The notes below the pieces were generated by a model. It was not told the origin of the DNA and ran no database searches. It worked only from the letters and a program-made list of their open reading frames with translations. Below, piece after piece: positions 4,013 through 31,531 of a stretch of DNA of 32,000 bases; position 1 is the stretch's first letter, and each line of letters starts with the position of its first letter. Position numbers and translations under genes: made by a program. Origin of the DNA: Pyrolobus fumarii 1A (GTDB taxonomy: Archaea; Thermoproteota; Thermoprotei_A; Sulfolobales; Pyrodictiaceae); contig NC_015931.1 of assembly GCF_000223395.1 (NCBI RefSeq), positions 1,380,001-1,412,000 on the forward strand, in the 5' to 3' direction.

Positions 4013-5398
4013 GTGGGGGGAATCGCTCTAGTTGATGCGGCACTTGTTCTTGCTGGCGGGCGCGGAGAGAGAGCATGGCCTCTAACAGCGACCATATACA
4101 AGCCCTTGCTGCAGCTACCAGGTAACGAGAGCATCTTATCAAGGCTGGTTAGACAGGTATCGCGTCTTGCCAAACGTGTATATGTTCTCGTCCCTCCTGG
4201 AGCCACGGAGGAGTTCAAGAAGCATCTAGACTCCTATGGCTTCACTAACGTTGTTGTAGTGGAGCAACAGCCATACGAGAATGGAGGTTATGGTAGCGGA
4301 GCTGCTGTTAGGCAATTGCTTGAAGTCGTACCTGACATTGACTCGGTACTAATTGTGCATGGTGATACGGTGATACACGACTCTGTTATTGATGATCTTG
4401 TTAAGCTTGCCGAGAATAGAGAATGGGGGCTTGTCGGCTTTCGTACAAACCGCAACGGGAAACGTTACGGCGTTATTGTTGCCGACGGCTCTCGCGTCAA
4501 ACGCATTGTAGAGAAGCCTGGTTGGAGCGGAGAAGTAGTGGCCAACGCAGCGATCTATCTACTTCCTGCTAGGCTTGTACGCGAGGCCGTTATGAACATA
4601 GGCATTAGCGAGCGAGGTGAAATAGAGTTCCCTGATGCAGTCAACCTCGTGGCTAAGCGGTTAGAGGATGAGGGCAAATGGCTACGACTACTACTTATTC
4701 GCGAAGAGCACAGGATCGATGTTGGCCCGTGGTGGGAGTATCTACTAGCATCTAGGATGGTGCTTGACTGGCTCGTCGAGAGCGGATGCAGAGCTGAAGG
4801 TAACATAGCATACAATGTCATAGTAAAGGGCGTTGTATGCGGAGAGGGTTTCGAGGTAGAAGGTCCCAGTGTTCTAGAGGGGCCTATCTGGCTAGGTAGA
4901 AACGCTAGAGTAGGACCTTTCACGCATCTTCGCAAATACACCATACTATACGATGACGTCCAAGTTGGTGCATTTGTTGAGATAAAGGGGAGCGTGCTAA
5001 TGGAGCGCACGGTAGCGAGACACCATGCATACATCGGCGATTCGGTGGTAGGCCCGCGTAGCAACATAGCTGCTGGAACCGTGTTTGCAAACCTTCGCCA
5101 CGACAACGCTACTGTAAGGTCATGCGCGGGCGGGCGCGTCAGAAACACTGGATTGAGAAAGCTTGGTGCCGTACTAGGTGAGGGTGTGAAAACAGGAGTC
5201 AACTCATCTATCATGCCAGGAGCGCGTATAGGACCATGTTCGTGGATTGAACCGGGTGCCGTCGTCAGAGGCGATGTGCCTTCATGCAGCTTCTATAGGA
5301 GAGACGGCGAGATAGTCGATATTAGAGAGGCTGTTGCAAACTGCTGCAGAGGCGTGCGTGGCGGCAGGGGTTATGGACTATGCACAAAACCCGAATAG
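4013..5398 (+). CDS. bifunctional-type sugar-1-phosphate nucleotidyltransferase with a C-terminal left-handed beta-helix (GlmU/ST0452-like)
   Basis: N terminus has LAGGRGERAWPLT..KPLL (NTP-transferase G-loop). The C-terminal half has hexapeptide-like repeats (IGDSVVGPRSNIAAGTVFAN..). GTG start. Confidence 0.8.
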   Translation: MGGIALVDAALVLAGGRGERAWPLTATIYKPLLQLPGNESILSRLVRQVSRLAKRVYVLVPPGATEEFKKHLDSYGFTNVVVVEQQPYENGGYGSGAAVRQLLEVVPDIDSVLIVHGDTVIHDSVIDDLVKLAENREWGLVGFRTNRNGKRYGVIVADGSRVKRIVEKPGWSGEVVANAAIYLLPARLVREAVMNIGISERGEIEFPDAVNLVAKRLEDEGKWLRLLLIREEHRIDVGPWWEYLLASRMVLDWLVESGCRAEGNIAYNVIVKGVVCGEGFEVEGPSVLEGPIWLGRNARVGPFTHLRKYTILYDDVQVGAFVEIKGSVLMERTVARHHAYIGDSVVGPRSNIAAGTVFANLRHDNATVRSCAGGRVRNTGLRKLGAVLGEGVKTGVNSSIMPGARIGPCSWIEPGAVVRGDVPSCSFYRRDGEIVDIREAVANCCRGVRGGRGYGLCTKPE

Positions 5399-9916: not shown

Positions 9917-10597
9917 TTAGGCGTGCGCCTCCTGCCCAGAAGCTAGCGTGCCCGCACTTGGAACCTCTGGGAATTGCTCGCGTAGCTTCTGCTCGGCGAG
10001 CAGGGCAGCCTCCTGTAGTATCTTTCGTGCCTCGCCGCTTGCAGCGGCGGAGACACTGGTCATTGATATGAACTCTCCGCTCTCTACTACTATCGAGTTC
10101 AGAGTCTCTTCTAGATCCATTAGCTCGAGGCTGAGCATCGGCATCACACCTCTTACATAGGCCTTTAGCTCGTGGATTATCCCTGCAAGCGGCGCTATCG
10201 CCGCCATAGTGTCGCCCAGCGTCATTACAGTCTCTAGACGGAGGCTGACCTGCTCAAGTGCAAGCTTTACTATCATGAGCTGCTTTATCGCCTTCCTGAT
10301 TTCCGCAACCTCAGTCGCGTATACAGCCGCCCTCTGCTTGTCACCCTGCTGCAGCGCCTCCACGACCCTTTCGAACAGCATCGCATCCCTCTCACGCAGC
10401 CTCGCTATGTGAGCCTCGAGCCTTGTTACCATAGCCTTTATCTTGTAGTTGACCACCATGAGCTTGTAACGTATCGGCTCACGGTTGACTACATCACGTA
10501 TCCTCTGACGAAAGCTCTTCTTTGGCTCCGGGTTCCAGGCCTTCACAAACTTGTCTATGTTCACGCCGCGGCACCAGCCTAACTCTACCGACGACAC
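9917..10597 (-). CDS. ESCRT-III (Snf7/CdvB-family) protein
   Basis: Helical-hairpin pattern RLRERDAMLFERVVEALQQGDKQRAAVYATEVAEIRKAIKQL..LEQVSLRLETV resembles crenarchaeal CdvB. C-terminal FPEVP at 9959-9973. Start is GTG at 10597, or alternatively GTG at 10564. Confidence 0.7.
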   Translation of the reverse strand: MSSVELGWCRGVNIDKFVKAWNPEPKKSFRQRIRDVVNREPIRYKLMVVNYKIKAMVTRLEAHIARLRERDAMLFERVVEALQQGDKQRAAVYATEVAEIRKAIKQLMIVKLALEQVSLRLETVMTLGDTMAAIAPLAGIIHELKAYVRGVMPMLSLELMDLEETLNSIVVESGEFISMTSVSAAASGEARKILQEAALLAEQKLREQFPEVPSAGTLASGQEAHA

Positions 10598-11103: not shown

Positions 11104-11847
11104 TCATATCATCCACTCGGGGAGCGGCTCACCTGGCTTGAAGAACCTCAGCGGCTTGATGCCAACACGCCTAAGACGCTCACGTACATGCGGGTATAGT
11201 ATCACATATTCCGGGTCGAGGTTCTCAACAAGTGCTGGGTGTATCTCGCTAAGCATTCTGATAAACTTGCGTATATCCTCGTCACGATCAAAACTCATCA
11301 TTAGAGCCGGGTAGACCTCGTCGCCAGGCTTTAACCCCTCTTCTATTAGCGTTCTCAACGCTTCTACCTGCACATACCAATAGCGCCTATCGACAAGCGT
11401 TATGCGCTCGAAGGTTTCTGGTTTAGCTCCTTTAATCGATACTCTCACCTCTATGCTACCCATAGACGCGAGATCGGCTATACTACGCGCAAGACGTCTA
11501 TCAAGGCCTATCAGCACACCATTAGTCTCTAGTATGAAGTGTAGCTTGTAATCACTGACTATGATCTTAGCCGCTTTGAGCATATGCTCGAACCATGCTA
11601 TTGTAGGCTCAGCCCCGCTAACACGCACCTGCCTTACTCGCCGCCTCATACAGAGCTCGTATAGCTTCTCAGCTACTTCCTCGGGTCTCGTCAGCTTGCC
11701 GGGTGTGTTAGGGTCCCTGCTGCGCGACCAGCAGAACACGCATCTGAAGTTACACCCGATGACGTCTGCTGTTGCTACACCACCGTACCAACGGTCAACG
11801 CGGAATCTGTAATAACGGCGTTTATCGCCATGTGTTGTAAGCTTCAC
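11104..11847 (-). CDS. small radical SAM protein (QueE/activase-like size class)
   Basis: CNFRCVFC (CX3CX2C) at nt 11731-11754 and a SGAEPTI glycine-rich motif. 247 aa, GTG start. Confidence 0.8.
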   Translation of the reverse strand: MKLTTHGDKRRYYRFRVDRWYGGVATADVIGCNFRCVFCWSRSRDPNTPGKLTRPEEVAEKLYELCMRRRVRQVRVSGAEPTIAWFEHMLKAAKIIVSDYKLHFILETNGVLIGLDRRLARSIADLASMGSIEVRVSIKGAKPETFERITLVDRRYWYVQVEALRTLIEEGLKPGDEVYPALMMSFDRDEDIRKFIRMLSEIHPALVENLDPEYVILYPHVRERLRRVGIKPLRFFKPGEPLPEWMI

Positions 11848-12063: not shown

Positions 12064-13776
12064 CTATCGCATCGCTTGCGGTTCAAGATACACCCTGATA
12101 AGCTCCTCCTTAACAACATCAATAACGCGCAGGTGGAACTCCTCCGCATGCTTAAGCAGTGTCACGCCTGCATCCGCATAACCCTTCGCTACGAGCAGAG
12201 CTGCCATACGCGATGATCTAGCTGGGATAGCGTGCTTGAAACTCTCTATGTGCTCGACGAGTATCTGACGTAGGCTTGTGGATGGCGGCGGCATTGCTAT
12301 CACATTTGGCTTTGGGGAGCCCACTATTGCAACATCCCTGGTTACTCTCTCTACCCTACCTGCTCGTGGCTCGGAGAACGCCGGGTGTAGCGGAGACATT
12401 GTCAATACCGCCTTAGTTGCATGCTTCTCGAGTATTTTCGCGGCGAGTGCTGTACCGCCGCCTAGCCATTTACACCCTAGTCTATGTTCATCACCCGTCT
12501 CCTCACCCGCACAGTACATGGTTGCGCGCCACGTACCAGTATGCAGATGGACCTCTACCTCCGCATCCTCTGGCATTACCTCGTGAACATCTTCGGGTAC
12601 TATTATGTAGCCGTCGCTACGAGAGTAAGTTACTATCATGTAGCTCTCGAACTCGATTGGTATAGCGTAGGGCACTCCACTAGACTCTAGCAGCACTACA
12701 GGCTGGTACAGTCTTCTACCACGTGCACCAGGTGCAGAAACAAGCAACTTTGCTCGAAGCACGCCTTCCGGGCTGGGAGGCTCGCCGCCAGCAAGATGCC
12801 ATAATAATGGCCTTACTAGCACGCGGAACACGTTTAGAGCGGATACCGGGTTGCCCGGCAACCCTATCACAAGCTTGTCGCGCACAATCGCTACGGCTGT
12901 AGGCTTGCCAGGCTTCAATTTAAGGCCGTGTGCTACCAGCTCACCCTCGGCTTCCAGCACTCTATACACTACGTCATAGGGACCTGCCGACGTCCCTCCA
13001 GTGAACAACATCACGTCGTGGTCCCGTAGGCAATTATGGAGGGCTCGTGCCACTTGCTCCTCATCATCCGGCAATATCCCAAGGACTTTCGACGGAAACC
13101 CGTCCTTTTCAAGGAAGCCTCGGATGACATATGTGTTTACCTCGTAGACGTGGCCCGGAGGGAGCTGTTCACCAGGCTTTACTAGCTCTACCCCGGTAGC
13201 AGCTATACACACGCGCGGCTTGTCATAGACACGTATCGAGTCTACACCCGTGGCCGCGAGCGCACCTACGAGCTGCGGGTAGAGGAGCTGTCCACGTCTA
13301 ACAACCACTTCGCCTTCAACAATATCCGAGCCGGGCCACGCGACATTTTCGCCAAAGCCGACACTCTTGTAGATCTCTACTACACCGGCTACCTCACGCG
13401 TATACTCTACCGGGACAACAGCATCAGCACCAGAGGGGATCGGCGCGCCAGTATCAACCTCTACCGCTTCACAACCCTCTATGCGCTTACTGGGGACTTC
13501 ACCTACCCTAACCCTCTCTACAACGGGAAGCCTTACGGGAGCCGCCTCGTGCGCCCCAGCAACACAAGTATGTCTCACAGCATACCCGTCAGCGGTTGCA
13601 CGAGGCTCTGGCGGGTAGCTCACCCGCGCCGCAACATCCTCTGCAGCGATGTGCCAAACAGCCTCGTATAGATCGACGATAATCTCGCGGATTCCGCGTG
13701 GAAGCCTAGCCTTTACCTCTTCTAAAACCTCCTCGGGGGCCCTTAATCGAGGAAATAGCTTCCGCCTATCCCTCAT
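12064..13776 (-). CDS. moeA: MoeA-type molybdopterin molybdenum/tungsten transferase fused to a C-terminal periplasmic-binding-protein-like domain
   Basis: DGYAVR, GAPIPSGADAVVPVE and TGGTSAGPYD. The C-terminal ~170 aa end in KGYADAGVTLLKHAEEFHLRVI, as in MoeA-PBP fusions. Confidence 0.8.
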   Translation of the reverse strand: MRDRRKLFPRLRAPEEVLEEVKARLPRGIREIIVDLYEAVWHIAAEDVAARVSYPPEPRATADGYAVRHTCVAGAHEAAPVRLPVVERVRVGEVPSKRIEGCEAVEVDTGAPIPSGADAVVPVEYTREVAGVVEIYKSVGFGENVAWPGSDIVEGEVVVRRGQLLYPQLVGALAATGVDSIRVYDKPRVCIAATGVELVKPGEQLPPGHVYEVNTYVIRGFLEKDGFPSKVLGILPDDEEQVARALHNCLRDHDVMLFTGGTSAGPYDVVYRVLEAEGELVAHGLKLKPGKPTAVAIVRDKLVIGLPGNPVSALNVFRVLVRPLLWHLAGGEPPSPEGVLRAKLLVSAPGARGRRLYQPVVLLESSGVPYAIPIEFESYMIVTYSRSDGYIIVPEDVHEVMPEDAEVEVHLHTGTWRATMYCAGEETGDEHRLGCKWLGGGTALAAKILEKHATKAVLTMSPLHPAFSEPRAGRVERVTRDVAIVGSPKPNVIAMPPPSTSLRQILVEHIESFKHAIPARSSRMAALLVAKGYADAGVTLLKHAEEFHLRVIDVVKEELIRVYLEPQAMR

Positions 13777-15058
13777 TACTCCCGCCTTCGCCCATGCACG
13801 GTGGTATAATCGGGTGTAGTAAGAACACTTCTGCCAGGCTACCCTCGTCGTACCCTGTTACATCCTCGCTCATGAGCAGCACGGCGTTACCCTCAACGAG
13901 TGTTGACAGAACGCCGCTACCGGTGGTACGGAGAGGTTTAACCATCAGGCCATCACTACCTAGGCATAGGTGCACACGTACAACGTCCATTACACCGGCT
14001 GGCGAAGTAACCCTCCTCTCTATCCTACCAATCAACCGAGGGTCTGGAGGCCACCTAATGCCGTACACCCCGTACACTATGCGCTCTATCACTGTGTAAA
14101 CTTGAGCCCACGCTGCCACCGGGAAGCCACTCAGCGAGGCAACAAGCTTGCCGCCCACGATACCGAGGCCTAGTGGCCTACCCGGTCTTAGGAGGAAGCC
14201 GTGGACGAGCCACCCTCCTTCGCCCTTAACGTATGATGATAGTACCTCAATAGTGTAGTCACGATCGCCTACACTAGACCCGCCGATAGCCATGACGATC
14301 TCTGCGCTCTCTAAGCCCTTCTCAAGCATCTCGCGTATAGCGTTAGGGTCGTCACCCACGTGCCCCAAGTCAATCACGTGGAAGCCTCTAGAGCGCAGAT
14401 AAGCCACAATCATCGGGCGCGTTGAGTTGAACACTTTGCCGGGTCTAGGTTCTGAACCAGGCTCGATAATCTCATCGCCCACACTGAAAACCGCTACACG
14501 CGGGAGTGCGAAAACTTCTATCTCGTTATACCCTTGCGCAGCTAATACACCAACATGACCCCATGTTATACGCTCGCCTTTACTAACGATAACATCACCC
14601 TTCTTGTAGTCCTCTCCACGCCTCATTATACCATAGCCTGGTGCAAAAGGCTTGTAGACGAAGAGCGCGCTACCCTCAACCCTGGCAGCTTCTACCGGGA
14701 TTACCACATCAGCACCAGTGGGTAGAGGCGAGCCCGTTGCAACCTTGTACGCTTCACCTGGCTTGATCTGAGGCGGGTTAGCCGCATCTATCCTCACCTC
14801 ACCGGCAATACGGAGTATAGCAGGGTTGGACTGCGAAGCACCCGCAACATCTATGCTCCTCACCGCAAAACCATCCAGGACGCTCTTGTCGACGGGTGGT
14901 AAGTCTAGGCGTGCACGGTACTCTCTGGCAGCATAGCCTCCAACAGCCTCTATGAGGGGTACACTCCTAGCTTCGAGCTTCCATACAGAACGCAACTCGT
15001 TGACGGCACGCTCCACCACGGACCTTATGGGGTTAAGACGTTCAAACCGACGCTTCAA
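13766..15058 (-). CDS. moeA: MoeA molybdopterin molybdenum/tungsten transferase (second paralog)
   Basis: DGFAVR, TGSPLPTGADVVIPVE and GGSSVGDRDY. TTG start. The stop overlaps the downstream moeA by 11 nt. Confidence 0.85.
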   Translation of the reverse strand: MKRRFERLNPIRSVVERAVNELRSVWKLEARSVPLIEAVGGYAAREYRARLDLPPVDKSVLDGFAVRSIDVAGASQSNPAILRIAGEVRIDAANPPQIKPGEAYKVATGSPLPTGADVVIPVEAARVEGSALFVYKPFAPGYGIMRRGEDYKKGDVIVSKGERITWGHVGVLAAQGYNEIEVFALPRVAVFSVGDEIIEPGSEPRPGKVFNSTRPMIVAYLRSRGFHVIDLGHVGDDPNAIREMLEKGLESAEIVMAIGGSSVGDRDYTIEVLSSYVKGEGGWLVHGFLLRPGRPLGLGIVGGKLVASLSGFPVAAWAQVYTVIERIVYGVYGIRWPPDPRLIGRIERRVTSPAGVMDVVRVHLCLGSDGLMVKPLRTTGSGVLSTLVEGNAVLLMSEDVTGYDEGSLAEVFLLHPIIPPCMGEGGSNEG

Positions 15059-15118: not shown

Positions 15119-16789
15119 TTACACTATCACCTCTATCACATGCAGTGCAAGCCATATGTATGCTACTACAAGGGTTGCCGCTACCACTATTGCTCCAATC
15201 TTTATCCACTCTTGGAACGATATGCGGAAGCCCCTCTTCTCCGCTATACCAATAGCCACAATGTTAGCAGTGCTACCAATGATGGTCAAGTTGCCACCCA
15301 TGGTGCCGCCGAATAACAGGCTCCAAGGCAGCATTTCACCACCCGGCAACTCTATACTCATTAGCGTTTTCGCTACTGGCGAGAGCGCAACTATAATCGG
15401 CATGTTGTCGACGAAGCCGCTCGCGACGGCCGTGACTACTAGAACTAGTAGGTTAGCATTAAGGCCTGTCCAGACGTTCATCTCGCCCCCCACTGCCGCG
15501 AGTATCAGGTAGGCTAGGACGTCTGTGACGCCGGTATAACTGAGGGTGGCTGCCTCAGCAAATAGGAACATGAAGAATAGCAGCGCCCACCATTCGACGC
15601 GCTCCTCTACTAGCTTTCTCGCAGAGAACCCGGTTCTAGCTATCACAATTGCCGCGGATATCACGGGTACAATCACTAGCATATCGTGCGGCGTTACGTA
15701 CATCATATGCTTCGCATTTTCGCCGTACAAGGCTGTAAGGATTATCTGCACTAACACCGCTAGTTCTGTGTGAAGCGCTATACCTAGTATCGTCAGGACG
15801 AACAGCACAGCCGATAGGTAGAAGTCGGTTTTGTTCTTTACCTCGGCCCACGGGTCAAGCTCTATACGCTTGCCCAACGCTCTCTTCATCTTTCCTATTT
15901 CGCCCCGTCTCTCGAGATAGCGCAATGATATCGGGTACGCCACTAGGAGAGCTGTAAAGGCAGCTGGCGATGCGTAGCGCAGGAAGTCTGTGAAGCCTTT
16001 CTCGAAGAACAGGCCTATGTAGATGCCTATGGGGTTGCCTATCATAGTCGCGGCACTGCCAAGGTTTGTCGCAAATACCGCTACTATGAGCCATGGTATA
16101 GGATTAAGGCCCAGCAGTTCAGCCGTCTCCAACACCAGTAAGGTAACATACACTATGCTGGATACCTCGTCTACAAGCGCGGCTAACACGAACGACAGTA
16201 GCATGAGTATGAAGAGGAATCTGGTAGGACTGCCTCCTGCTAACGCTACAACCTTAACTGTTATGAAGCGCAGGAAGCCGCTCTCTTTCAAGTAGCCAAC
16301 GACAATCATCATAGATATGAGGAATAGTATCAAGCCTAGCTCCATACTCTCAAGTGCCATGCGGAATGGCAATACGCCAGTTAGTATCAGCGCAACGAAG
16401 CCTAGGAAGACTGCTGCTACCCTACGCTCCCAGAAGGTTATAGCTGCGAGTATTGACACGTAGAATATCACTGCCGCTATTGTCTGCTTTTGCTTCACAA
16501 CAGGATCGTTTAGAGAGACGAACTTACACAACTCACTAACGTCGATACTCCCCTTCTCAAGCGCCTCGTGTAGCACCTTACCCTCTAGCACGATTTCGAT
16601 TATGTTCTCCTTACACACCTTCTTGCTGAACACCTTGTGAATAATTAGGAACTCTTCCGTCTCAGGCACATGGAGTGAGGGTAACAGTGCAGCTATGATA
16701 GCCGATCCTATAATCGCTAGCAACACAAACGTCACTATCTTCCTCCTACTAACGCCCTCATTCACATGACTCTCCATCAACATCGCCAC
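15119..16789 (-). CDS. polytopic permease, ArsB/NhaD/CitMHS (ion transporter) superfamily
   Basis: 556 aa with more than 10 hydrophobic segments and an internal repeat-like architecture. A soluble insert follows the first helix. Substrate unknown. Confidence 0.65.
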   Translation of the reverse strand: MAMLMESHVNEGVSRRKIVTFVLLAIIGSAIIAALLPSLHVPETEEFLIIHKVFSKKVCKENIIEIVLEGKVLHEALEKGSIDVSELCKFVSLNDPVVKQKQTIAAVIFYVSILAAITFWERRVAAVFLGFVALILTGVLPFRMALESMELGLILFLISMMIVVGYLKESGFLRFITVKVVALAGGSPTRFLFILMLLSFVLAALVDEVSSIVYVTLLVLETAELLGLNPIPWLIVAVFATNLGSAATMIGNPIGIYIGLFFEKGFTDFLRYASPAAFTALLVAYPISLRYLERRGEIGKMKRALGKRIELDPWAEVKNKTDFYLSAVLFVLTILGIALHTELAVLVQIILTALYGENAKHMMYVTPHDMLVIVPVISAAIVIARTGFSARKLVEERVEWWALLFFMFLFAEAATLSYTGVTDVLAYLILAAVGGEMNVWTGLNANLLVLVVTAVASGFVDNMPIIVALSPVAKTLMSIELPGGEMLPWSLLFGGTMGGNLTIIGSTANIVAIGIAEKRGFRISFQEWIKIGAIVVAATLVVAYIWLALHVIEVIV

Positions 16790-17279
16790 CTGCTATGCAG
16801 GCCGCACCACAAGAGCGGGTTAAACAACTAACTAGTAAGTAGCACATGACATGCCCCGAACAACTAGAGGCTGCAAGACGGAAAAGATGAGACGCGCTCT
16901 CCTTGTCATCGCTAGAGCCGAAACCAGGGATAGGGTCAAACACCGTTGAGAGTACACGCGCTATTCTCTTCTCCGCGTTACAACCAACACTATACACTAC
17001 ACATACAGGCCTTGCATACCCGCTTGCAAGCAACCTATCTATGTGCCAGTGCAGCCTCCGCCGCCTATCCATTAAATGCCTCTTTAGACGCGCTCTTAGC
17101 CCTCCGGGCCCCCAGCCACTCCCCACATAGACATAGAAGCCCGGCTCGAGAACAACTATGCGTTTACCCCGCTTGTCTATACGTATAGCTAGATGCACGC
17201 TTAGTTTCAAAAGTAGTAAATATGTGCCGCCAACCGAGGGTATAGAATTAACATGGTGAAAAGGCGGTCGGCAGAGCAA
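16758..17279 (-). CDS. DUF123 (GIY-YIG/Uri-superfamily-like) protein
   Basis: GGTYLLLL.., GFYVYVGSG, LRARLKRHL, LHWHIDRLL and GFGSSD..SHLF match the DUF123 pattern. TTG start. The tail overlaps the permease start by 32 nt. Confidence 0.7.
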   Translation of the reverse strand: MLCRPPFHHVNSIPSVGGTYLLLLKLSVHLAIRIDKRGKRIVVLEPGFYVYVGSGWGPGGLRARLKRHLMDRRRRLHWHIDRLLASGYARPVCVVYSVGCNAEKRIARVLSTVFDPIPGFGSSDDKESASHLFRLAASSCSGHVMCYLLVSCLTRSCGAACIAGGDVDGESCE

Positions 17280-17429: not shown

Positions 17430-17861
17430 TTGGGGCCGGTGGAGTTGGCTGCAATAGAGATAGCTGCTCAACGAGTTAAATTACCCAGCGGCCGGGAGAT
17501 AACGCCATTAGAGGCGTTGAAATTCTGCTACAACTTGTCAGAGACCGACATAGAGATACTGATCGTGATGCTGCAAGGTGGTAAGTATGACGTCGAGACT
17601 CTTGCAAACAAACTAGGGCTTAGCAAGGCTACCATTAACCGTTCATTAAACAAGCTAGCGGCGATAGGGTTCGTTGAGCGTGAAAGAGAGACGAGGAAGA
17701 CTGCGGGTAGGCCACGCTACTTCTACTATATACGCGACCCTGCAAATCTGCTATCAAAGATACAGAACGACCTAGACTTCTGTGCAAAAGCGTTCGAAGA
17801 GGGTATAAAGAACATGCTACTATCATCTCTACGCAAGGCTGTAGCCAAGACTAACGAGTAG
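17430..17861 (+). CDS. winged-helix transcriptional regulator (TrmB/MarR-like)
   Basis: ETLANKLGLSKATINRSLNKLAAIGFVERE is an HTH plus wing. 33-nt convergent overlap with the radical SAM gene. Confidence 0.7.
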   Translation: MGPVELAAIEIAAQRVKLPSGREITPLEALKFCYNLSETDIEILIVMLQGGKYDVETLANKLGLSKATINRSLNKLAAIGFVERERETRKTAGRPRYFYYIRDPANLLSKIQNDLDFCAKAFEEGIKNMLLSSLRKAVAKTNE

Positions 17862-18662
17862 ACTACGAGGAACCGAGCAGCAAAACGGATACACCCTTTG
17901 AATCAGCTTTTTCAGTCTTAATGTCGGCACGGCTATCCGGTCAAATACCGACATAACAATCTCTTCATAGTTTTTGAGGAACAGAGGACGCATGCAACCG
18001 AGTGAAACCTCGTTAACATATCCTCTTACCGTTCTAACTGCCAGCAACAATCGGTTGACCACATCCCGAGGCCTATGCTTTGTCTCAAGGTGATATAGCA
18101 TCACTAGGATGTCCGGCTTTACTAGACGAGCCAACATACTCAGCATTTCACTCTCTTCACTTACGCTTACACCAGGCAAGCCTAACAGAACATGAGGTGC
18201 TACATGGAAGCCCATGTCTTTCAACATAGCAGCATTGTATATGTAATCTATGGGCTTACGGTGCCATACATGCATCATGCTAAGATGCGTGTTGGTCAAG
18301 GGCACCTCATAGTCGATTACGTCTACTATGTCAAGCAACATCTTTGCTTGCTTTTCACTAATGAATCCTGTATGCATCGAGATTACAACTCTTGTTTTCA
18401 TTTTGAAGCGCTTTAACACTCCGATAAATGGCTCAAATGGCAGCCTTGCCTCACGGGTAAATCCTCCACTGATTAATATCCCGGTTACACCCTTGGAGAC
18501 AATCTTGTCCAGGAGTCTCTCTAGCATTGCAGGTGTGGGAGCGGGTATCATACCACGGAGCCATCTTCCACGACAGTAATCGCATTGAAGGCTGCAACTA
18601 TGCCCGGTTATGCTAATCGCTAGATACTTGTCACCAGGTTCGAATAGTTTGACTCTCCACAT
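17829..18662 (-). CDS. radical SAM protein, BioB/LipA-like
   Basis: GHSCSLQCDYCRG (nt 18573-18596) and ILISGG. Extra Cys in GCMRP and FCCS near the C terminus. Confidence 0.8.
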   Translation of the reverse strand: MWRVKLFEPGDKYLAISITGHSCSLQCDYCRGRWLRGMIPAPTPAMLERLLDKIVSKGVTGILISGGFTREARLPFEPFIGVLKRFKMKTRVVISMHTGFISEKQAKMLLDIVDVIDYEVPLTNTHLSMMHVWHRKPIDYIYNAAMLKDMGFHVAPHVLLGLPGVSVSEESEMLSMLARLVKPDILVMLYHLETKHRPRDVVNRLLLAVRTVRGYVNEVSLGCMRPLFLKNYEEIVMSVFDRIAVPTLRLKKLIQRVYPFCCSVPRSLLVSLGYSLA

Positions 18663-19579
18663 GCTCTTAGCGCCTCTAGAGCCTCATACACCTCTCGCTT
18701 GTCTGGCTCCCAGGGTATATTGTAGAGTGTGCCTCTTGGGCGCTCGTTGTAGTATGGGCGGTTACAAGCGGGGCACCCGCTGGTCACTATTGCACGCTCA
18801 ACAATCTCTAACGGCGGGGTTCTCTTCAACACCCAACCTTGTGGATTGAAAGGTGATGGTGTTATGTAGGAGTCAGGGTTTACACCCTCATCGAGCAATT
18901 GACGGTATAGTTGGGCGCCCCGATAGTAACATAGGCTTGGTGGCTTACCCCCCAGCTTAGCGCTAGGAGTGTATGCGAACAGAGCTATTCTGCCGCCAAG
19001 CCTCTTGACGTGTCTCATTGTAGCCGCTAGCTCACTGGCCTTCTCTCCAACACCGACTATGAGATGCACGTATACTCGCCTATCTCCAAACACTTCCACC
19101 GCATCTCGCAAAGTACGCATGTACAGGCTATAGGGATATGGTTTGCCTAGCTTCATAGCAAGCCTTGGCGTCGCTGCATCTAGCCCGATTCCCAGTGTCT
19201 CTACGCCTTCGTCTCTAAGCTCCTCTAGGAGCGGTTTACCCGCAACTGCTATCGAGACTGAAATACGGGGATTAACTCTTGCTATAATACGCACTAGCTG
19301 TACTAGTTTCCGTCCCATATTAGGTCCGATGACCGTCTGTATACATACGCGTTCAAATTCACTAAGAGCAGAGACGATCTCGCGCAAATCAACCTTGTAC
19401 CATGTTACTCTAGACAGCTTTACCCTCTCACCTGCAACGGGGGCACCACTCAACTCGCAATAAGCGCATGTAGCTACACACTTTCCGTCCATAAGTAGGT
19501 AGGCTACGCGTCTCATCCAGCGAGGGAGCTTCTCGCCACGCAGTACGAATAGAGTCGCCAACGAGACGTAGACATGCAC
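18620..19579 (-). CDS. radical SAM protein, BioB/LipA-like
   Basis: DGKCVATCAYCEL (nt 19457-19480) and a C-terminal GCPACNRPYYNE. Start is GTG at 19579, or alternatively ATG at 19516. Overlaps the next gene by 43 nt. Confidence 0.8.
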   Translation of the reverse strand: MHVYVSLATLFVLRGEKLPRWMRRVAYLLMDGKCVATCAYCELSGAPVAGERVKLSRVTWYKVDLREIVSALSEFERVCIQTVIGPNMGRKLVQLVRIIARVNPRISVSIAVAGKPLLEELRDEGVETLGIGLDAATPRLAMKLGKPYPYSLYMRTLRDAVEVFGDRRVYVHLIVGVGEKASELAATMRHVKRLGGRIALFAYTPSAKLGGKPPSLCYYRGAQLYRQLLDEGVNPDSYITPSPFNPQGWVLKRTPPLEIVERAIVTSGCPACNRPYYNERPRGTLYNIPWEPDKREVYEALEALRACGESNYSNLVTSI

Positions 19580-28619: not shown

Positions 28620-28637
28620 ACTCTTTAAACTCTTTAA
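28620..28637. repeat. tandem 2 x 9-nt repeat in a convergent gene junction
   Basis: ACTCTTTAA-ACTCTTTAA read directly. The second copy contains the stop codon of the minus-strand 316-aa ORF. Confidence 0.8.
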
Positions 28638-29584
28638 GATGCTTCGACTACTTGGATCGAGATCCATCCGGGCTCCTCATACAACCCTTCTCGTGTAATG
28701 ACAACATCTAGGCTGCGAGGAGGCCATATCCTGGCGCCACCACATCTACGATAGGCCTCAAATACTGCTTCAATTGCACGTCCAGTACTCAGCTCGTTTA
28801 ACCACGCTAAGGCTACTATGCTCGTTAGCGGCCACGAGCCTACACCGGTCTTCACTGTGTATCCTTCATCGTGGGCTATTGGTATGCGTGCAGTTAATCC
28901 TAGCTCATCTTGTAATCGCTTAGCTGCCCTAAGCTGCGCATCGCTATACACTCTCAGTACTTTGTTAACATCGATTTCCTCTGGCAATGTTAGCTTGTAG
29001 ATGACTCTACAACCAGTACATCCTAGGTAGCAACGAGCCCGGCGTAAAGCAACACGCCCCCGCGAGCCAGGCGCTATGCTTGCATGCACGGGTCTCTCTT
29101 CAATCACGTCCTCTAAATGTGCACTAGTTAGACGCAGAGCTTTACGCCCGTATAGCTCCTCGAGTATCTTCCACCAATACGTCTCAATTAGACTACATGA
29201 CGCGAGGCTATACTCACGAGCAATACGAGAGATGTTCAGCCTGCCTTCCACTATCTGAGCATATATGTGGGCTGCCAGTATACTGTTCACAACCTCTAAG
29301 GGAGACGGTACTATTGTATAAGAGGCGAAGAGTGTATCACACTCTATATTCGATAGCACATCGATTACGTTATGCTCCTCGCATGTTGGTACACGGCCGC
29401 CCCGTAGCATTCTCCGTACACGTCTTGCAGATTGCACCGTACGCTTACCAATACACTCGACACCATACCTCATTAACACTAACTTACCGCCGCGATACGC
29501 ATAGTCTACACCACGCTTCAACACTACATTCGGCGGGTTGGCATAGAAACCAGGCACATACACCCTTACTAGTAGCTCTTGCAT
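28634..29584 (-). CDS. hypothetical protein (316 aa) with an HTH-like segment and a CX3CX2C triad
   Basis: ATG start. RLNISRIAREYSLASCSLIETYWWKILEEL at aa 115-144. CYLGCTGC at nt 29009-29032. No family recognised. Confidence 0.6.
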   Translation of the reverse strand: MQELLVRVYVPGFYANPPNVVLKRGVDYAYRGGKLVLMRYGVECIGKRTVQSARRVRRMLRGGRVPTCEEHNVIDVLSNIECDTLFASYTIVPSPLEVVNSILAAHIYAQIVEGRLNISRIAREYSLASCSLIETYWWKILEELYGRKALRLTSAHLEDVIEERPVHASIAPGSRGRVALRRARCYLGCTGCRVIYKLTLPEEIDVNKVLRVYSDAQLRAAKRLQDELGLTARIPIAHDEGYTVKTGVGSWPLTSIVALAWLNELSTGRAIEAVFEAYRRCGGARIWPPRSLDVVITREGLYEEPGWISIQVVEAS

Positions 29585-30177
29585 AGCTTGTCCAGCACCT
29601 CCTGCACAGCTACACTACCCTCAATAGTTTCACCGTTAACGCGCAAAGCAATGTTATCCACGCTTATCACGCCACAACCCATGAGCCTTAGTCCACCCAC
29701 GATTAGTTCGCCTGCCGACAGAACATCCAATATCCTCTTTACAACCCCAACTTTCCTACAAGGCTCTTCAATTATAATCAACCCTTCAAACACAACATCG
29801 GGTTTCACGACAGTAACGTAACAGCGTACAGGTAACCCAGCCACCCTATCCACAAATGATACGTAACGGAGCTCCACAAACTCTCCAAGTTCAACAACAC
29901 CACGCGCCTCTAGTAGACGTTTTAGTAGCTCACAGGGTGGGTATAGGTCGCTGAATACTACATTCCCATCCTCCACGCCAACCACACGCCGTATCTCTCT
30001 ACCCGGTATACGCGGCACGACAAACACGTTACCGTCACATTTCACTCTTGTCACGCTCGTTACACGTATAGGCGCAGCTATCTCTTCAGAGAAGCCCTCA
30101 AAATACAGACAAGACCTTGACTTAACCCGGTATACAATCTCTACCCGATCCGCCTGCAACCCATAACACCTCCGCAA
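29569..30177 (-). CDS. hypothetical Cys-rich beta-rich protein (202 aa)
   Basis: TTG start at 30177, or alternatively TTG at 30159. GGLRLMGCG at nt 29671-29697. Overlaps the downstream ORF by 16 nt. Confidence 0.55.
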   Translation of the reverse strand: MRRCYGLQADRVEIVYRVKSRSCLYFEGFSEEIAAPIRVTSVTRVKCDGNVFVVPRIPGREIRRVVGVEDGNVVFSDLYPPCELLKRLLEARGVVELGEFVELRYVSFVDRVAGLPVRCYVTVVKPDVVFEGLIIIEEPCRKVGVVKRILDVLSAGELIVGGLRLMGCGVISVDNIALRVNGETIEGSVAVQEVLDKLCKSY

Positions 30178-30568
30178 GCAACTTGAAGATTAGACCCCAG
30201 CGCACGACCCCACGGGGGTTACACGAGCCTGCTCTACAACTCCTTAGAAGAGATACTAGCCTCTCATCCACGAGGAGTTCGCCAACCTCCCTGGCAAGCC
30301 TCTCGTCAACAACACCACGTAGACTATACACCTGGGCCTCAACCGCAAGATCCGTCAACAGCACCTCTAGACTACTGATACGCTCGGCCGAAGGGGGTAT
30401 GCCCGAGCCAAACACATTTTCAATGGCACTTGAGGCACGATACAAGATCCAGGCCAAGGGATACACACGTTCAGCGCCAACACGTGATACAACACTTCGG
30501 ACATCCTCTATTATGCTACCCAACTCTTCTCTCTCAAGACGCGCTACAACATTCTTCAAGCTTAACAT
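30122..30568 (-). CDS. hypothetical helical protein (148 aa)
   Basis: ATG preceded by GGAGGTG. E/L/V/R-rich composition, whereas the antisense ORF is S/T/R-rich. No family recognised. Confidence 0.6.
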   Translation of the reverse strand: MLSLKNVVARLEREELGSIIEDVRSVVSRVGAERVYPLAWILYRASSAIENVFGSGIPPSAERISSLEVLLTDLAVEAQVYSLRGVVDERLAREVGELLVDERLVSLLRSCRAGSCNPRGVVRWGLIFKLLAEVLWVAGGSGRDCIPG

Positions 30569-30577
30569 TCACGCATC

Positions 30578-30584
30578 CACCTCC
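30578..30584 (-). promoter_or_regulatory. Shine-Dalgarno sequence for the 148-aa ORF
   Basis: The minus strand reads GGAGGUG, 9 nt upstream of the ATG at 30568. Confidence 0.6.
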
Positions 30585-30801
30585 TATCACCCGGGGATGG
30601 CGAGCAGGCTGGCAGACAACTGAGGGTAAACCCCGGTGAAGAGCAGGCCACCAGCCGACCCTAAAACAGAGCACAACACATGTGAATATAACAACAAATA
30701 CTCCCCACAGCAAGGGTGGGCAGGGGCGCGCGACCGGGAGAGGTTTGGTGTAAAAATGGAGCTGGGGGTGTTTGACTCCCGGGGCCCGACACGCTGCGGA
30801 C

Positions 30802-31032
30802 TTAGGCGGTGGCGTGCTGCTCGACTGCCTGCTTACCAGCGTCGGTGATCTGGTACCTGCCGTCCTCTAGCCTCTCAACATAGCCTAGCCTCACGAGCTT
30901 CCTCATCTTGGCGGCGACGCGGCGGCCGTCCTCGCCGATCCTCTCAGCGATCTCCTTGGGGCGTAGCGCGGTACCAGCCTCGGCGAGCGCCTTGAGTATC
31001 TTAATGTCTAGCTCGTCTAGGGTGCTAGCCAT
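30802..31032 (-). CDS. small winged-helix DNA-binding protein (76 aa)
   Basis: LDIKILKALAEAGTALRPKEIAERIG..KLVRLGYVERLEDGRYQITDAG. I chose the ATG at 31032. A T5 run lies 46 nt after the stop. Confidence 0.7.
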   Translation of the reverse strand: MASTLDELDIKILKALAEAGTALRPKEIAERIGEDGRRVAAKMRKLVRLGYVERLEDGRYQITDAGKQAVEQHATA

Positions 31033-31252
31033 CCTACACCCACCCATTCCGGTTCTATCATCGATTAGGGATGGGGCGTTTTGCTCTTTTGGTCGGCCCA
31101 GAGCGGAGAAACAGGTATCATTCCTTTAACCACACACGATTATGCTATGCTCCCGCTGCAGCTGGTATTAGTGACCCGTTATGCTTGACTCGTGGTACCG
31201 CCAAGGACGTGACGTGAAGGGTATTATCAAGTGCCCAGATAAAAGTATGGGT

Positions 31253-31531
31253 CTAGAGGCTAACCACGCCTCGAAAGGCTTGCCAGGCTGGCATTCTTGC
31301 AACCCGCTTAGCCTTTGCCAATAAGAGCTCGAGCTCATCGTCTTTGGCGTAGTCTAGTGGCTCGCCGCGTCGGTCGTTCTGCTCCCACCGGTTATAGAGT
31401 TCTTGGAGGATACGGGAGACTTCCTCGTCAGCATAGAAGAGCGCCGAATGCCAAGGGCTCATGTTGCTCAATATCATCTCAAGTTCTTTGCGAGCATCCT
31501 TTCTTACGAAAAACTTGTCAATAATACCCAA
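31253..31531 (-). CDS. hypothetical helical protein (92 aa)
   Basis: ATG ORF starting 4 nt after the serS stop. No family recognised. Confidence 0.45.
   Translation of the reverse strand: MGIIDKFFVRKDARKELEMILSNMSPWHSALFYADEEVSRILQELYNRWEQNDRRGEPLDYAKDDELELLLAKAKRVARMPAWQAFRGVVSL

Follow-up and report, generated by a model that had tools for sequence, protein, structure and literature searches.

The window analysed here, a 32-kb stretch of DNA from Pyrolobus fumarii 1A, carries on its minus strand a trio of overlapping cistrons, Pyrfu_1502-1504, preceded by a leader and a winged-helix gene. P. fumarii is among the most thermophilic organisms known and grows above 100 °C. The features of the locus, in the direction in which they would be transcribed and with positions given in the window, are as follows:

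30802-31032, minus strand: winged-helix (wHTH) gene, Pyrfu_1505 by position, 76 aa; the mechanical ORF reaches ATG 31047
30752-30756, minus strand: T5 run, after the stop codon of the wHTH gene
30685-30691, minus strand: TATA-like box TTATATT, some 27 nt ahead of repeat 1
30636-30658, minus strand: leader direct repeat 1 (TCGGCTGGTGGCCTGCTCTTCAC), a nearly invariant block
30597-30614, minus strand: leader direct repeat 2 (TGCCAGCCTGCTCGCCAT), its CCAGCCTGCTC shared by almost every lineage
30591-30636, minus strand: CCGGGG/CCCCGG hairpin proposed in the first-pass annotation, with arms at 30631-30636 and 30591-30596
30578-30584, minus strand: Shine-Dalgarno site GGAGGTG of cistron 1, 9 nt before ATG 30568
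30122-30568, minus strand: cistron 1 (Pyrfu_1504), an all-helical protein of 148 aa in which three Cys are invariant; putative Cas11/Csm2-like small subunit
30167-30173, minus strand: Shine-Dalgarno site GGAGGTG of cistron 2, within cistron 1, 7 nt before TTG 30159
29569-30159, minus strand: cistron 2 (Pyrfu_1503), 196 aa, predicted Csm3-like Cas7 RAMP
29671-29697, minus strand: G-rich loop GGLRLMGCG of the Csm3-like protein
29596-29602, minus strand: Shine-Dalgarno site GGAGGTG of cistron 3, within cistron 2, 11 nt before ATG 29584
28634-29584, minus strand: cistron 3 (Pyrfu_1502), 316 aa, predicted Csm5-like RAMP

All three frames lie where the first-pass annotation had drawn them, as overlapping minus-strand ORFs of 148, 202 and 316 aa. 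The first two overlap by 56 nt, or by 38 nt counted from TTG 30159, and the second and third by 16 nt; the 202-aa product belongs to the mechanical ORF of cistron 2, which spans 29569-30177 and begins at TTG 30177. The GGAGGTG described 9 nt ahead of the first ATG is also present. This exact heptamer occurs seven times on the two strands of the window, and three of the seven copies precede the starts of the trio, which supports all three starts and the 196-aa form of cistron 2. The Pyrfu_1503 protein sourced from NCBI is also 196 aa long. Among relatives, GGGGGAGGTG is kept together with the TTG start of cistron 2 in three loci (L005, L008 and L010), and GAGGAGGTG-like sites stand ahead of cistron 3; the site of cistron 1 showed no conservation among them. 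At least six diverged lineages retain the trio together with its two overlaps and its internal Shine-Dalgarno sites, which is more than chance would give, and the compact, co-translated three-gene unit amid housekeeping genes that had been proposed is real.

The gene just upstream on the same strand had been read as a 76-aa winged-helix gene, and this is borne out. Its product matches HTH_24 (E 2.7e-7) and, weakly, Lrs14 and Csa3-type wHTH models, and its relatives (86-91% identical) begin at MAST, that is, at the second ATG (31032), which gives 76 aa. The gene adjoins the trio in every lineage with upstream DNA to inspect. A role as dedicated regulator of the trio is unproven. The wHTH gene evolves three to six times more slowly than the trio, and elsewhere a homologue with 72% identity has another gene behind it.

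Sequence comparisons and predicted folds

The first-pass annotation could place none of the three proteins in a family. That statement holds for sequence libraries, as the trio has no match in Pfam, NCBIfam or PHROGs, but not for predicted structures. Confident structure matches to characterised families had been named as grounds for dropping the first reading, and such matches were obtained: in Foldseek searches with AlphaFold2 models the 196-aa protein matched Csm3 and the 316-aa protein Csm5.

For the 196-aa protein (pLDDT 83, pTM 0.79), the top 50 Foldseek matches in the PDB were all Csm3-length chains of type III-A Csm complexes, with probability 1.00 and E-values from 3.6e-8 to 1e-5, and most of these 50 chains were confirmed as Csm3 by sequence. 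On this evidence, which is mainly that of the model, cistron 2 is a predicted Csm3-like Cas7 RAMP. At the sequence level, PADLOC reports Csm3 at E 0.003, in three of the ten members of the family, and six of the family's seven weak matches are to RAMP models; two members weakly match the Cas5_IIId model, and the fold match is still to Csm3. No curated Csm3 or RAMP match was found for the protein in Pfam or NCBIfam at E up to 1, and the family profile found no Csm3 among PDB sequences. A HMMER profile of the family, run against 1.84 billion representative proteins, likewise found no Csm3, just two clusters of the family itself, both from the same syntenic locus. Comparison by hhalign of the family with the single T. 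thermophilus Csm3 sequence was uninformative.

Within the G-rich loop, G155, R158, G161, C162 and G163 are invariant in all ten sequences, and the GGxxxxGxG spacing of GGLRLMGCG equals that of GGHISRGYG in T. thermophilus Csm3. The suggestion that the loop at 29671-29697 recalls RAMPs was correct. In addition, PRIPGRE of the 196-aa protein aligns with PYIPGSS of T. thermophilus Csm3. Csm3 has its catalytic aspartate (D34 in T. thermophilus) in the loop that follows strand 1. At the presumed equivalent position, judged by motif only, nine of the ten members have D or E with Pro a few residues on, and one (L005) has Q, which makes RNase activity uncertain. The eight cysteines counted earlier are those of the 202-aa form; the 196-aa form has seven.

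The model of the 316-aa protein is less good (pLDDT 68, pTM 0.71): residues 17-90 and 165-185 are poor, and about 30% of residues fall below pLDDT 50. Its top 21 Foldseek matches in the PDB were nevertheless all Csm5 chains (E 2.2e-6 to 0.05), with identities confirmed; the structural matches are to Csm5, not to Csm4 and not to Cmr proteins. Cistron 3 is therefore read, mainly from a moderate model, as a predicted Csm5-like RAMP. We found no matches for the protein in Pfam, NCBIfam, PADLOC or PDB sequences, and hhalign of its family against the single T. thermophilus Csm5 was uninformative. Its homologues, 34-45% identical, occur solely in syntenic loci. The CX3CX2C triad pointed out in this protein (CYLGCTGC, 29009-29032) is present but specific to P. 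fumarii, with just the first Cys invariant; as the triad is not conserved, the idea of a metal cluster was rejected.

The 148-aa protein contains no His, just as its composition had been described, and its homologues (45-65% identical) are again found solely in syntenic loci. It has no family or PDB sequence matches besides designed helical repeat proteins. Alignment of its family by hhalign with single T. thermophilus Csm2 and Cmr5 sequences gave probabilities below 5%, by a method that is underpowered, being uninformative even for the Csm3 pair. Cistron 1 occupies the place of csm2 in a III-A operon, upstream of the csm3-like gene, and its product probably fills the Cas11/Csm2 small-subunit role.

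Taken as a set, the genes for the small helical, the Csm3-like and the Csm5-like protein follow one another as in the csm2-csm3-csm4-csm5 order of Thermus thermophilus, with csm4 missing, and two adjacent genes independently match two different subunits of one complex, Csm3 and Csm5. The RAMP assignment depends mainly on AlphaFold2 models from shallow alignments (8 and 3 sequences), and the Foldseek TM-scores of the 196-aa and 316-aa models are about 0.4-0.55, with large rmsd.

Conservation of the operon and its leader

The trio is confined to Pyrolobus-like lineages. The order of the locus (SerRS, wHTH, trio, FeS-assembly gene) is constant and every relative has the same flanks; a check of co-occurrence and synteny proposed with the first reading found the three genes kept together in fixed order in at least six diverged lineages. 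A scan of genome contigs added just one further Pyrolobus metagenome-assembled genome. By tblastn the trio had no match in phages or plasmids, and a mobile-element origin was rejected.

The trio evolves three to six times faster than its flanks (dN 0.3-0.9 versus 0.04-0.19). Synonymous sites are saturated for most pairs (pS 0.6-0.8), so dN/dS is informative for the closest pair alone, where it is 0.16 and 0.39. Despite this saturation, at least six lineages retain the three ORFs intact, and 16 Cys are invariant across the trio. The genes are under selection and have been vertically inherited as a unit.

Between the wHTH gene and cistron 1, the T5 run (30752-30756) and the TTATATT box (30685-30691) are both at the positions first given for them. 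The T5 run may serve as a terminator of archaeal type or belong to a T-rich promoter element; relatives have a GTTTTTCC run 20-35 nt upstream of repeat 1. The TTATATT box is specific to P. fumarii, which has about 100 nt inserted relative to other lineages. The repeats themselves are well kept. Specifically, the repeat 1 block is nearly invariant across seven to eight lineages, including the deepest one (L015), and its GCTGGTGGCCTGCTC occurs in exactly one copy in each of loci L001-L007; CCAGCCTGCTC of repeat 2 is kept in nearly all lineages. The two repeats start 32 to 39 nt apart, with more variable sequence in between. The duplicated GCCTGCTC that had been noticed in the leader is found as reported, at 30641-30648 and 30602-30609.

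The proposed CCGGGG/CCCCGG hairpin fared less well. Its arms are present, but it is absent from the leader's minimum-energy fold and is not conserved, and the leader folds no better than shuffled sequences (z +0.59); we rejected it as a conserved feature. In five relatives, the 3' arm pairs instead with another GC-rich arm, located upstream of repeat 1, and the pairing shows compensatory changes.

The view that the leader repeats are true CRISPR repeats is not supported. They are short (about 14-22 nt), and the stretch separating them evolves like ordinary sequence. No complementary site was found in the window at up to two mismatches. The leader motif had two matches in viral contigs, both in unrelated bacterial-phage DNA and, by our estimate, within chance expectation.

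Comparison with known type III systems

We found no Cas10, Cas5 or Cas6 in the 32-kb window, and no tandem repeats, CRISPR array or Rfam match. The other ORFs scanned in the window are housekeeping genes or have no Pfam match, with no cas gene among them, and the flanks in relatives are likewise without cas genes. None of the operon's three cistrons is a Cas5-family subunit (Csm4/Cmr3), and there is no Cas5-like subunit in the trio to hold the 5' end of an RNA. No nuclease gene lies next to the trio, nor any adaptation or CARF gene near it.

With type III-A (Csm) systems the trio shares the predicted Csm3 and Csm5 folds, the csm2-csm3-...-csm5 order, the G-rich loop and the PxIPG motif. It differs from them in having no Cas10/Csm1, Csm4 (Cas5), Cas6, array, or adaptation or CARF genes nearby, in a similarity that lies below profile detection, and in a locus fixed amid housekeeping genes.

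Three groups of type III derivatives invite comparison. HRAMP and ARAMP are composed of Cas5 and Cas7 homologues, usually with HNH or PD-(D/E)xK nucleases; like the trio, they are array-less, consist of extremely diverged RAMPs with faint type III affinity, and are each limited to one archaeal group (PMC8730458, PMC12669027). ARAMP is often linked to Cas1 as well, whereas the trio has no Cas5 or nuclease gene; the trio, in turn, has a Csm5-like subunit, and its host belongs to Thermoproteota. The III-E effector (Cas7-11/gRAMP) derives from type III by loss of Cas10 and Cas5; it is made up solely of Cas7-type and Cas11 modules, which bind and cut RNA (PMC8730458). The trio shares with it the lack of Cas10 and Cas5 and the combination of Cas7-type and Cas11 modules, the Cas11 of the trio being putative. 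However, III-E is one fused protein that comes with a CRISPR array of its own and in most cases with a TPR-CHAT partner, while the trio consists of separate cistrons, three in number and each with a Shine-Dalgarno site, and has neither array nor partner. Finally, III-G of Sulfolobales has a locus without array or adaptation genes, as does the trio, and is thought to borrow crRNAs in trans (PMC12669027); it retains Cas5, a Cas10 that includes an HD domain, and Csx26, its signature protein, none of which the trio has.

As a whole the module looks undescribed, with type III backbone proteins at a fixed chromosomal site and no array, Cas10 or Cas5. To that extent the earlier nomination of the trio as a candidate for an undescribed function stands, but its proteins are not family-less, in view of the structure matches to Csm3 and Csm5.

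Proposed role and alternative explanations

We consider it reasonably probable that the trio descends from the backbone of a type III-A-like (Csm) CRISPR effector, from which it has diverged strongly, and that it now stands alone. The best reading, by analogy with HRAMP and ARAMP, would be an array-less, type III-derived RNA-binding module with no Cas10 or Cas5. One mRNA would carry the three cistrons, each behind a strong Shine-Dalgarno site, and their translation would be coupled through the stop/start overlaps, which would give fixed subunit ratios. The products would most likely assemble on single-stranded RNA as a short Cas7-type filament, with Csm3-like subunits, a Csm5-like cap and the helical protein alongside. 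Without Cas10, Cas5, Cas6 and an array, canonical type III immunity would be impossible (no cyclic-oligoadenylate signalling, no 5'-handle recognition), so the trio is probably an RNA-binding, possibly an RNA-cleaving, complex. Its RNA partner might come in trans from the I-A and III-B systems reported for P. fumarii (PMC12195208) or might be a non-CRISPR RNA dedicated to it. A candidate site for binding or autoregulation is the conserved leader, where a covarying stem encloses the two direct repeats.

If this reading is true, the trio would be the third lineage-specific array-less type III derivative, after HRAMP and ARAMP, the first in Thermoproteota, and the most reduced, with unfused Cas7-type subunits and a small subunit and no Cas5, Cas10 or nuclease. 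Structure prediction would have recovered Cas homologues missed by every profile library. The trio would also offer a tractable case for the role of a bare Cas7 backbone freed from CRISPR immunity, and an RNA-binding scaffold from an organism whose growth extends above 100 °C.

A rather unlikely alternative is that the trio is an accessory or alternative backbone dependent on the resident III-B (Cmr) or I-A system, which would load Cas6-processed crRNAs, for example for RNA targeting without Cas10 signalling, or would modulate the resident system. That both systems are reported in P. fumarii (PMC12195208), that type III variants lacking an array, III-G for example, are believed to obtain their crRNAs in trans (PMC12669027), and that fast evolution is typical of defence genes would all fit. 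Against it, there is no Cas5-like subunit to recognise a 5' handle derived from the repeat, the folds match Csm and not Cmr proteins, and the locus is fixed amid housekeeping genes, away from cas genes.

It is doubtful that operon and leader together form a self-contained domesticated ribonucleoprotein. The two repeats and the variable stretch that separates them would then be a degenerate, fixed 'mini-array' or a dedicated scaffold RNA, by analogy with the repeat-like RNAs of CreR/CreA type, bound by the three proteins; this type III derivative, lacking Cas10, Cas5 and an array, would have been exapted for host gene regulation or RNA surveillance.

We regard it as very unlikely that the trio is not CRISPR-derived at all and is a complex of other origin, RNA-binding or not, in which convergence or prediction bias makes ferredoxin-like (RRM) folds look like RAMPs. 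The lack of significant profile-level similarity to any Cas family, the modest TM-scores with large rmsd, and the shallow alignments beneath the models would be expected in that case. However, the top 50 and the top 21 Foldseek matches all come from type III-A Csm complexes, with generic RRM proteins absent; neighbouring genes match distinct subunits of a single complex and do so in the order of its operon; the weak sequence matches to RAMP models are independent of the folds; and RAMP signature motifs stand at equivalent positions.

That the trio is a decaying type III-A remnant, functionless after the loss of Cas10, Csm4 and the array, is highly improbable: the missing Cas10, Cas5, Cas6 and array, the very fast protein divergence and the varying residue at the presumed catalytic position would suit it, but pseudogenes would show stops or frameshifts, and the ORFs are intact in at least six synonymously saturated lineages, dN/dS in the closest pair is 0.16-0.39, the overlaps, TTG start, Shine-Dalgarno sites, G-rich loop and 16 Cys are kept, and the leader element is conserved.

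The trio operon and its products

In this window from Pyrolobus fumarii 1A, the three minus-strand ORFs described in the first-pass annotation have the coordinates given there, and their products have exactly the sequences of Pyrfu_1502 (316 aa), Pyrfu_1503 (196 aa) and Pyrfu_1504 (148 aa). The features of the locus, all on the minus strand, are the following:

31253-31531, 92-aa helical orphan ORF, between SerRS and the winged-helix gene
30802-31032, 76-aa winged-helix (wHTH) gene (Pyrfu_1505 by position)
30636-30658, leader repeat 1
30597-30614, leader repeat 2
30122-30568, first trio gene, Pyrfu_1504, 148 aa
29569-30159, second trio gene, Pyrfu_1503, 196 aa (202 aa as a mechanical ORF)
28634-29584, third trio gene, Pyrfu_1502, 316 aa

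The overlaps are as annotated, 56 nt at the first junction (38 nt from TTG 30159) and 16 nt at the second, and the GGAGGTG 9 nt before the first ATG, the TTATATT box, the T5 run and the peptides CYLGCTGC and GGLRLMGCG were likewise correctly reported. Each of the three starts has an exact GGAGGTG before it, at 9, 7 and 11 nt respectively, and these represent three of the seven copies in the whole window. Because one of them precedes TTG 30159, we place the start of the middle gene there; the NCBI-sourced Pyrfu_1503 protein is also 196 aa long. Related loci likewise start the middle gene at TTG and have Shine-Dalgarno sites inside the genes, and they keep overlaps of 32-41 nt at the first junction and 13-16 nt at the second. 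A Shine-Dalgarno site for each cistron, together with the kept overlaps, is consistent with coupled translation of the operon.

Searches of Pfam, NCBIfam and PHROGs with the trio proteins gave no matches, and the sole hint from a sequence library was a PADLOC match of the 196-aa protein to Csm3 (E 0.003). To that extent the earlier statement that none of the three can be placed in a family holds; predicted structure, however, places two of them, as Csm3-like and Csm5-like, and the Foldseek matches go against the orphan status claimed for the 196-aa and 316-aa proteins. For the AlphaFold2 model of the 196-aa protein (8-sequence alignment, pLDDT 83, pTM 0.79), the top 50 Foldseek matches were all type III-A Csm-complex chains of Csm3 length, with E values from 3.6e-8 to ~1e-5, probability 1.00 and TM of ~0.5. 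The model of the 316-aa protein was built from 3 sequences (pLDDT 68, two regions poorly modelled), and its top 21 matches were all Csm5, with E values from 2.2e-6. A PDB sequence search with Thermus thermophilus Csm3 and Csm5 confirmed the chain identities, for Csm3 in most of the chains.

When each member of the 196-aa family was scanned with PADLOC, seven weak matches were obtained, six of them to RAMP models (three to Csm3, two to Cas5_IIId and one to type IV Cas7). PRIPGRE of the 196-aa protein aligns with PYIPGSS of T. thermophilus Csm3, and GGLRLMGCG aligns with GGHISRGYG at identical spacing; the presumed catalytic position of the Csm3-like family is occupied by an acidic residue in nine of ten members and by Q in one. 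From AlphaFold2 models of shallow alignments and Foldseek, short of profile-level confirmation, we consider it highly probable that the two larger proteins are RAMPs. The 148-aa protein had profile matches to designed helical repeat proteins only; it is a putative Cas11/Csm2-like small subunit, judged solely by its size, its helical character and its position.

Distribution and divergence of the trio

Relatives of the trio are few: only 3-8 per product among 5.8 billion clustered proteins, and only two clusters in a full HMMER profile search with the 196-aa protein against 1.84 billion representatives. Every one is from a metagenome assembly, titled Pyrolobus sp. where a title is given. The first-pass annotation had treated the genes as one module, and in all relatives found in these Pyrolobus-type assemblies the three do occur together and in the same order, within the arrangement SerRS, (92-aa ORF), wHTH, 148-aa, 196-aa, 316-aa, convergent FeS_assembly_P, MoCF_biosynth, SHMT.

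By Nei-Gojobori analysis, most pairs of lineages have saturated synonymous sites (pS 0.6-0.8), and dN is 0.3-0.9 for the trio, 0.04-0.19 for the wHTH gene and 0.11-0.16 for the FeS gene; the flanks are thus outpaced by the trio 3-6 times. In spite of this fast divergence the trio ORFs are intact, and for the least-saturated pair of loci (L008 and L010) dN/dS is 0.16 and 0.39. Invariant cysteines number sixteen over the three families (three in the 148-aa, seven in the 196-aa and six in the 316-aa family). Stabilising disulfides have been described for hyperthermophilic Crenarchaeota, and the trio cysteines may form such disulfides or metal sites. His is absent from the 148-aa protein, as annotated, and also from the 196-aa protein. 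Judged by sequence comparison, the trio are functional, fast-evolving genes that remain under selection and are vertically inherited as a unit.

The 92-aa ORF at 31253-31531 has no Pfam match. Its counterparts are only 37-47% identical to it, so its pace of change equals that of the trio; it is present in most lineages, with no ORF found at that position in the related locus L005. It might be part of the same fast-evolving island.

The leader element and the winged-helix gene

The spacer from the wHTH stop to ATG 30568 is 233 nt long. Two blocks within it hardly vary in any lineage, even the deepest (L015, at 33-47% protein identity):

Block 1, TCGG(C/A)TGGTGGCCTG(C/T)TC(C/T)TCAC
Block 2, TGCCAGCCTGCTC..CA(C/T)

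The direct repeat RGCCTGCTCYNCAY is common to both blocks, and the duplicated GCCTGCTC annotated in the leader is indeed present. The repeats are spaced 32-39 nt start to start, with less conserved sequence between them; the window has a single occurrence of them and, at up to two mismatches, no site complementary to them. Matches to the leader motif in viral contigs were rejected as chance matches in bacterial-phage DNA.

Five lineages have a GC-rich stem, 8-12 bp long, that closes around both repeats and whose end lies ~12 nt before the ATG. In a 7-sequence alignment 90% of the cells pair, against 38-52% in slid controls, compensatory changes occur at four pairs, and the covariation score exceeds that of all 500 shuffles. 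This covariation is suggestive only, because the seven sequences are related and the structure was derived from the same alignment. The P. fumarii leader is missing the upstream stem arm, and its predicted folding does not exceed that of shuffled sequences (z +0.59). The arms of the CCGGGG/CCCCGG hairpin annotated there are present but lie outside the minimum-energy fold; the hairpin may substitute for the missing arm. The leader element is a real, conserved cis-feature. Its possible roles include that of an operator bound by the wHTH protein, of a structure that controls translation, or of a platform to which the encoded complex binds.

The 76-aa wHTH gene is present as annotated, with an HTH_24 match at E 2.7e-7, and its product weakly resembles Lrs14/Csa3-type winged helices. 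It adjoins the trio in every lineage for which the upstream DNA is available, and at 81-96% identity it is conserved far above the trio. Its synonymous divergence is also unusually low (pS 0.32-0.61 versus 0.65-0.90 for the neighbouring FeS-assembly gene), which points to additional constraint, for instance from high expression or from an RNA or DNA element inside the gene. A dedicated regulatory link from the wHTH gene to the trio is possible. On another metagenome contig (L019), a 72%-identical homologue has different neighbours on both sides. Downstream of it, at 5232-5330, a GGTTTTCC run is found together with the motif GGCTGCTCCTCCCC, and the gene after these is a different one; by eye, the motif matches the leader repeat at 12 of 14 bases, which hints weakly at a repeat linked to the wHTH gene and not to the trio.

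Relation to type III systems

In structure the trio is nearest to type III-A Csm3 and Csm5, and its gene order in Pyrolobus (small helical, Csm3-like, Csm5-like) follows that of the III-A operon in T. thermophilus, cas10-csm2-csm3-csm4-csm5, minus cas10 and csm4. The locus nevertheless falls outside the type III definition, with Cas10, Cas5 and an array all absent. The 32-kb window contains no tandem repeat or CRISPR array, and no Rfam family or tRNA was found in it. Its other scanned ORFs have housekeeping functions or lack a Pfam match, in agreement with the annotated setting, and hence no cas gene or nuclease is near the trio; Cas10, Cas5, Cas6, Cas1/2, a CARF effector and a nuclease are missing nearby in P. 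fumarii and from the flanks of its relatives. The housekeeping genes include aromatic amino-acid synthesis enzymes, a split transketolase, a CCA-adding enzyme, two MoeA paralogues, three radical-SAM proteins, geranylgeranyl reductase, HSP20 and SHMT, among others. Because P. fumarii 1A appears in a 2025 survey with subtypes I-A and III-B (PMC12195208), canonical CRISPR systems and crRNAs are probably located elsewhere in the genome.

The nearest conceptual relatives are HRAMP of Haloarchaea and ARAMP of Asgard archaea, together with III-E and III-G, and all differ from the trio in composition. Both HRAMP and ARAMP lack an array and are type III-derived, with Cas5 and Cas7 homologues and linked nucleases (PMC8730458, PMC12669027); III-E has lost Cas10, yet consists of a single fused protein and has an array (PMC8730458); and III-G, although array-less, keeps Cas10 and Csx26 (PMC12669027). 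Since the literature searched makes no mention of Pyrfu_1502-1505 either, we class the trio as a CRISPR-derived RAMP module outside every defined subtype.

The trio products would form a short filament of the Cas7 type on single-stranded RNA, in which the Csm5-like subunit is the cap and the helical 148-aa protein the minor filament. We put the case for and against a single complex with a Cas11-like small subunit at about even. Lacking Cas10, it would have neither cyclic-oligoadenylate signalling nor an HD nuclease, and lacking Cas5, no canonical 5'-handle recognition; because both are absent, an RNA-binding, possibly RNA-cutting particle seems most likely. Its RNA might come from the CRISPR systems resident in the genome or be a dedicated one, such as its own leader. 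Any specific biological role is proposed with low confidence.

Other minus-strand features of the window are the following:

9917-10597, 226-aa ORF with a weak Snf7 (ESCRT-III/CdvB-like) match, E 1.8e-4, below the Pfam cut-off
12064-15058, tandem MoeA-family paralogues (570 and 430 aa) with overlapping ends, adjoining a CitMHS-type transporter
11104-11847, 17829-18662 and 18620-19579, radical-SAM proteins, two of the three adjacent and overlapping

In the vicinity of the radical-SAM genes, 16758-17279 encodes a DUF123 protein and 17430-17861 a TrmB-like regulator.
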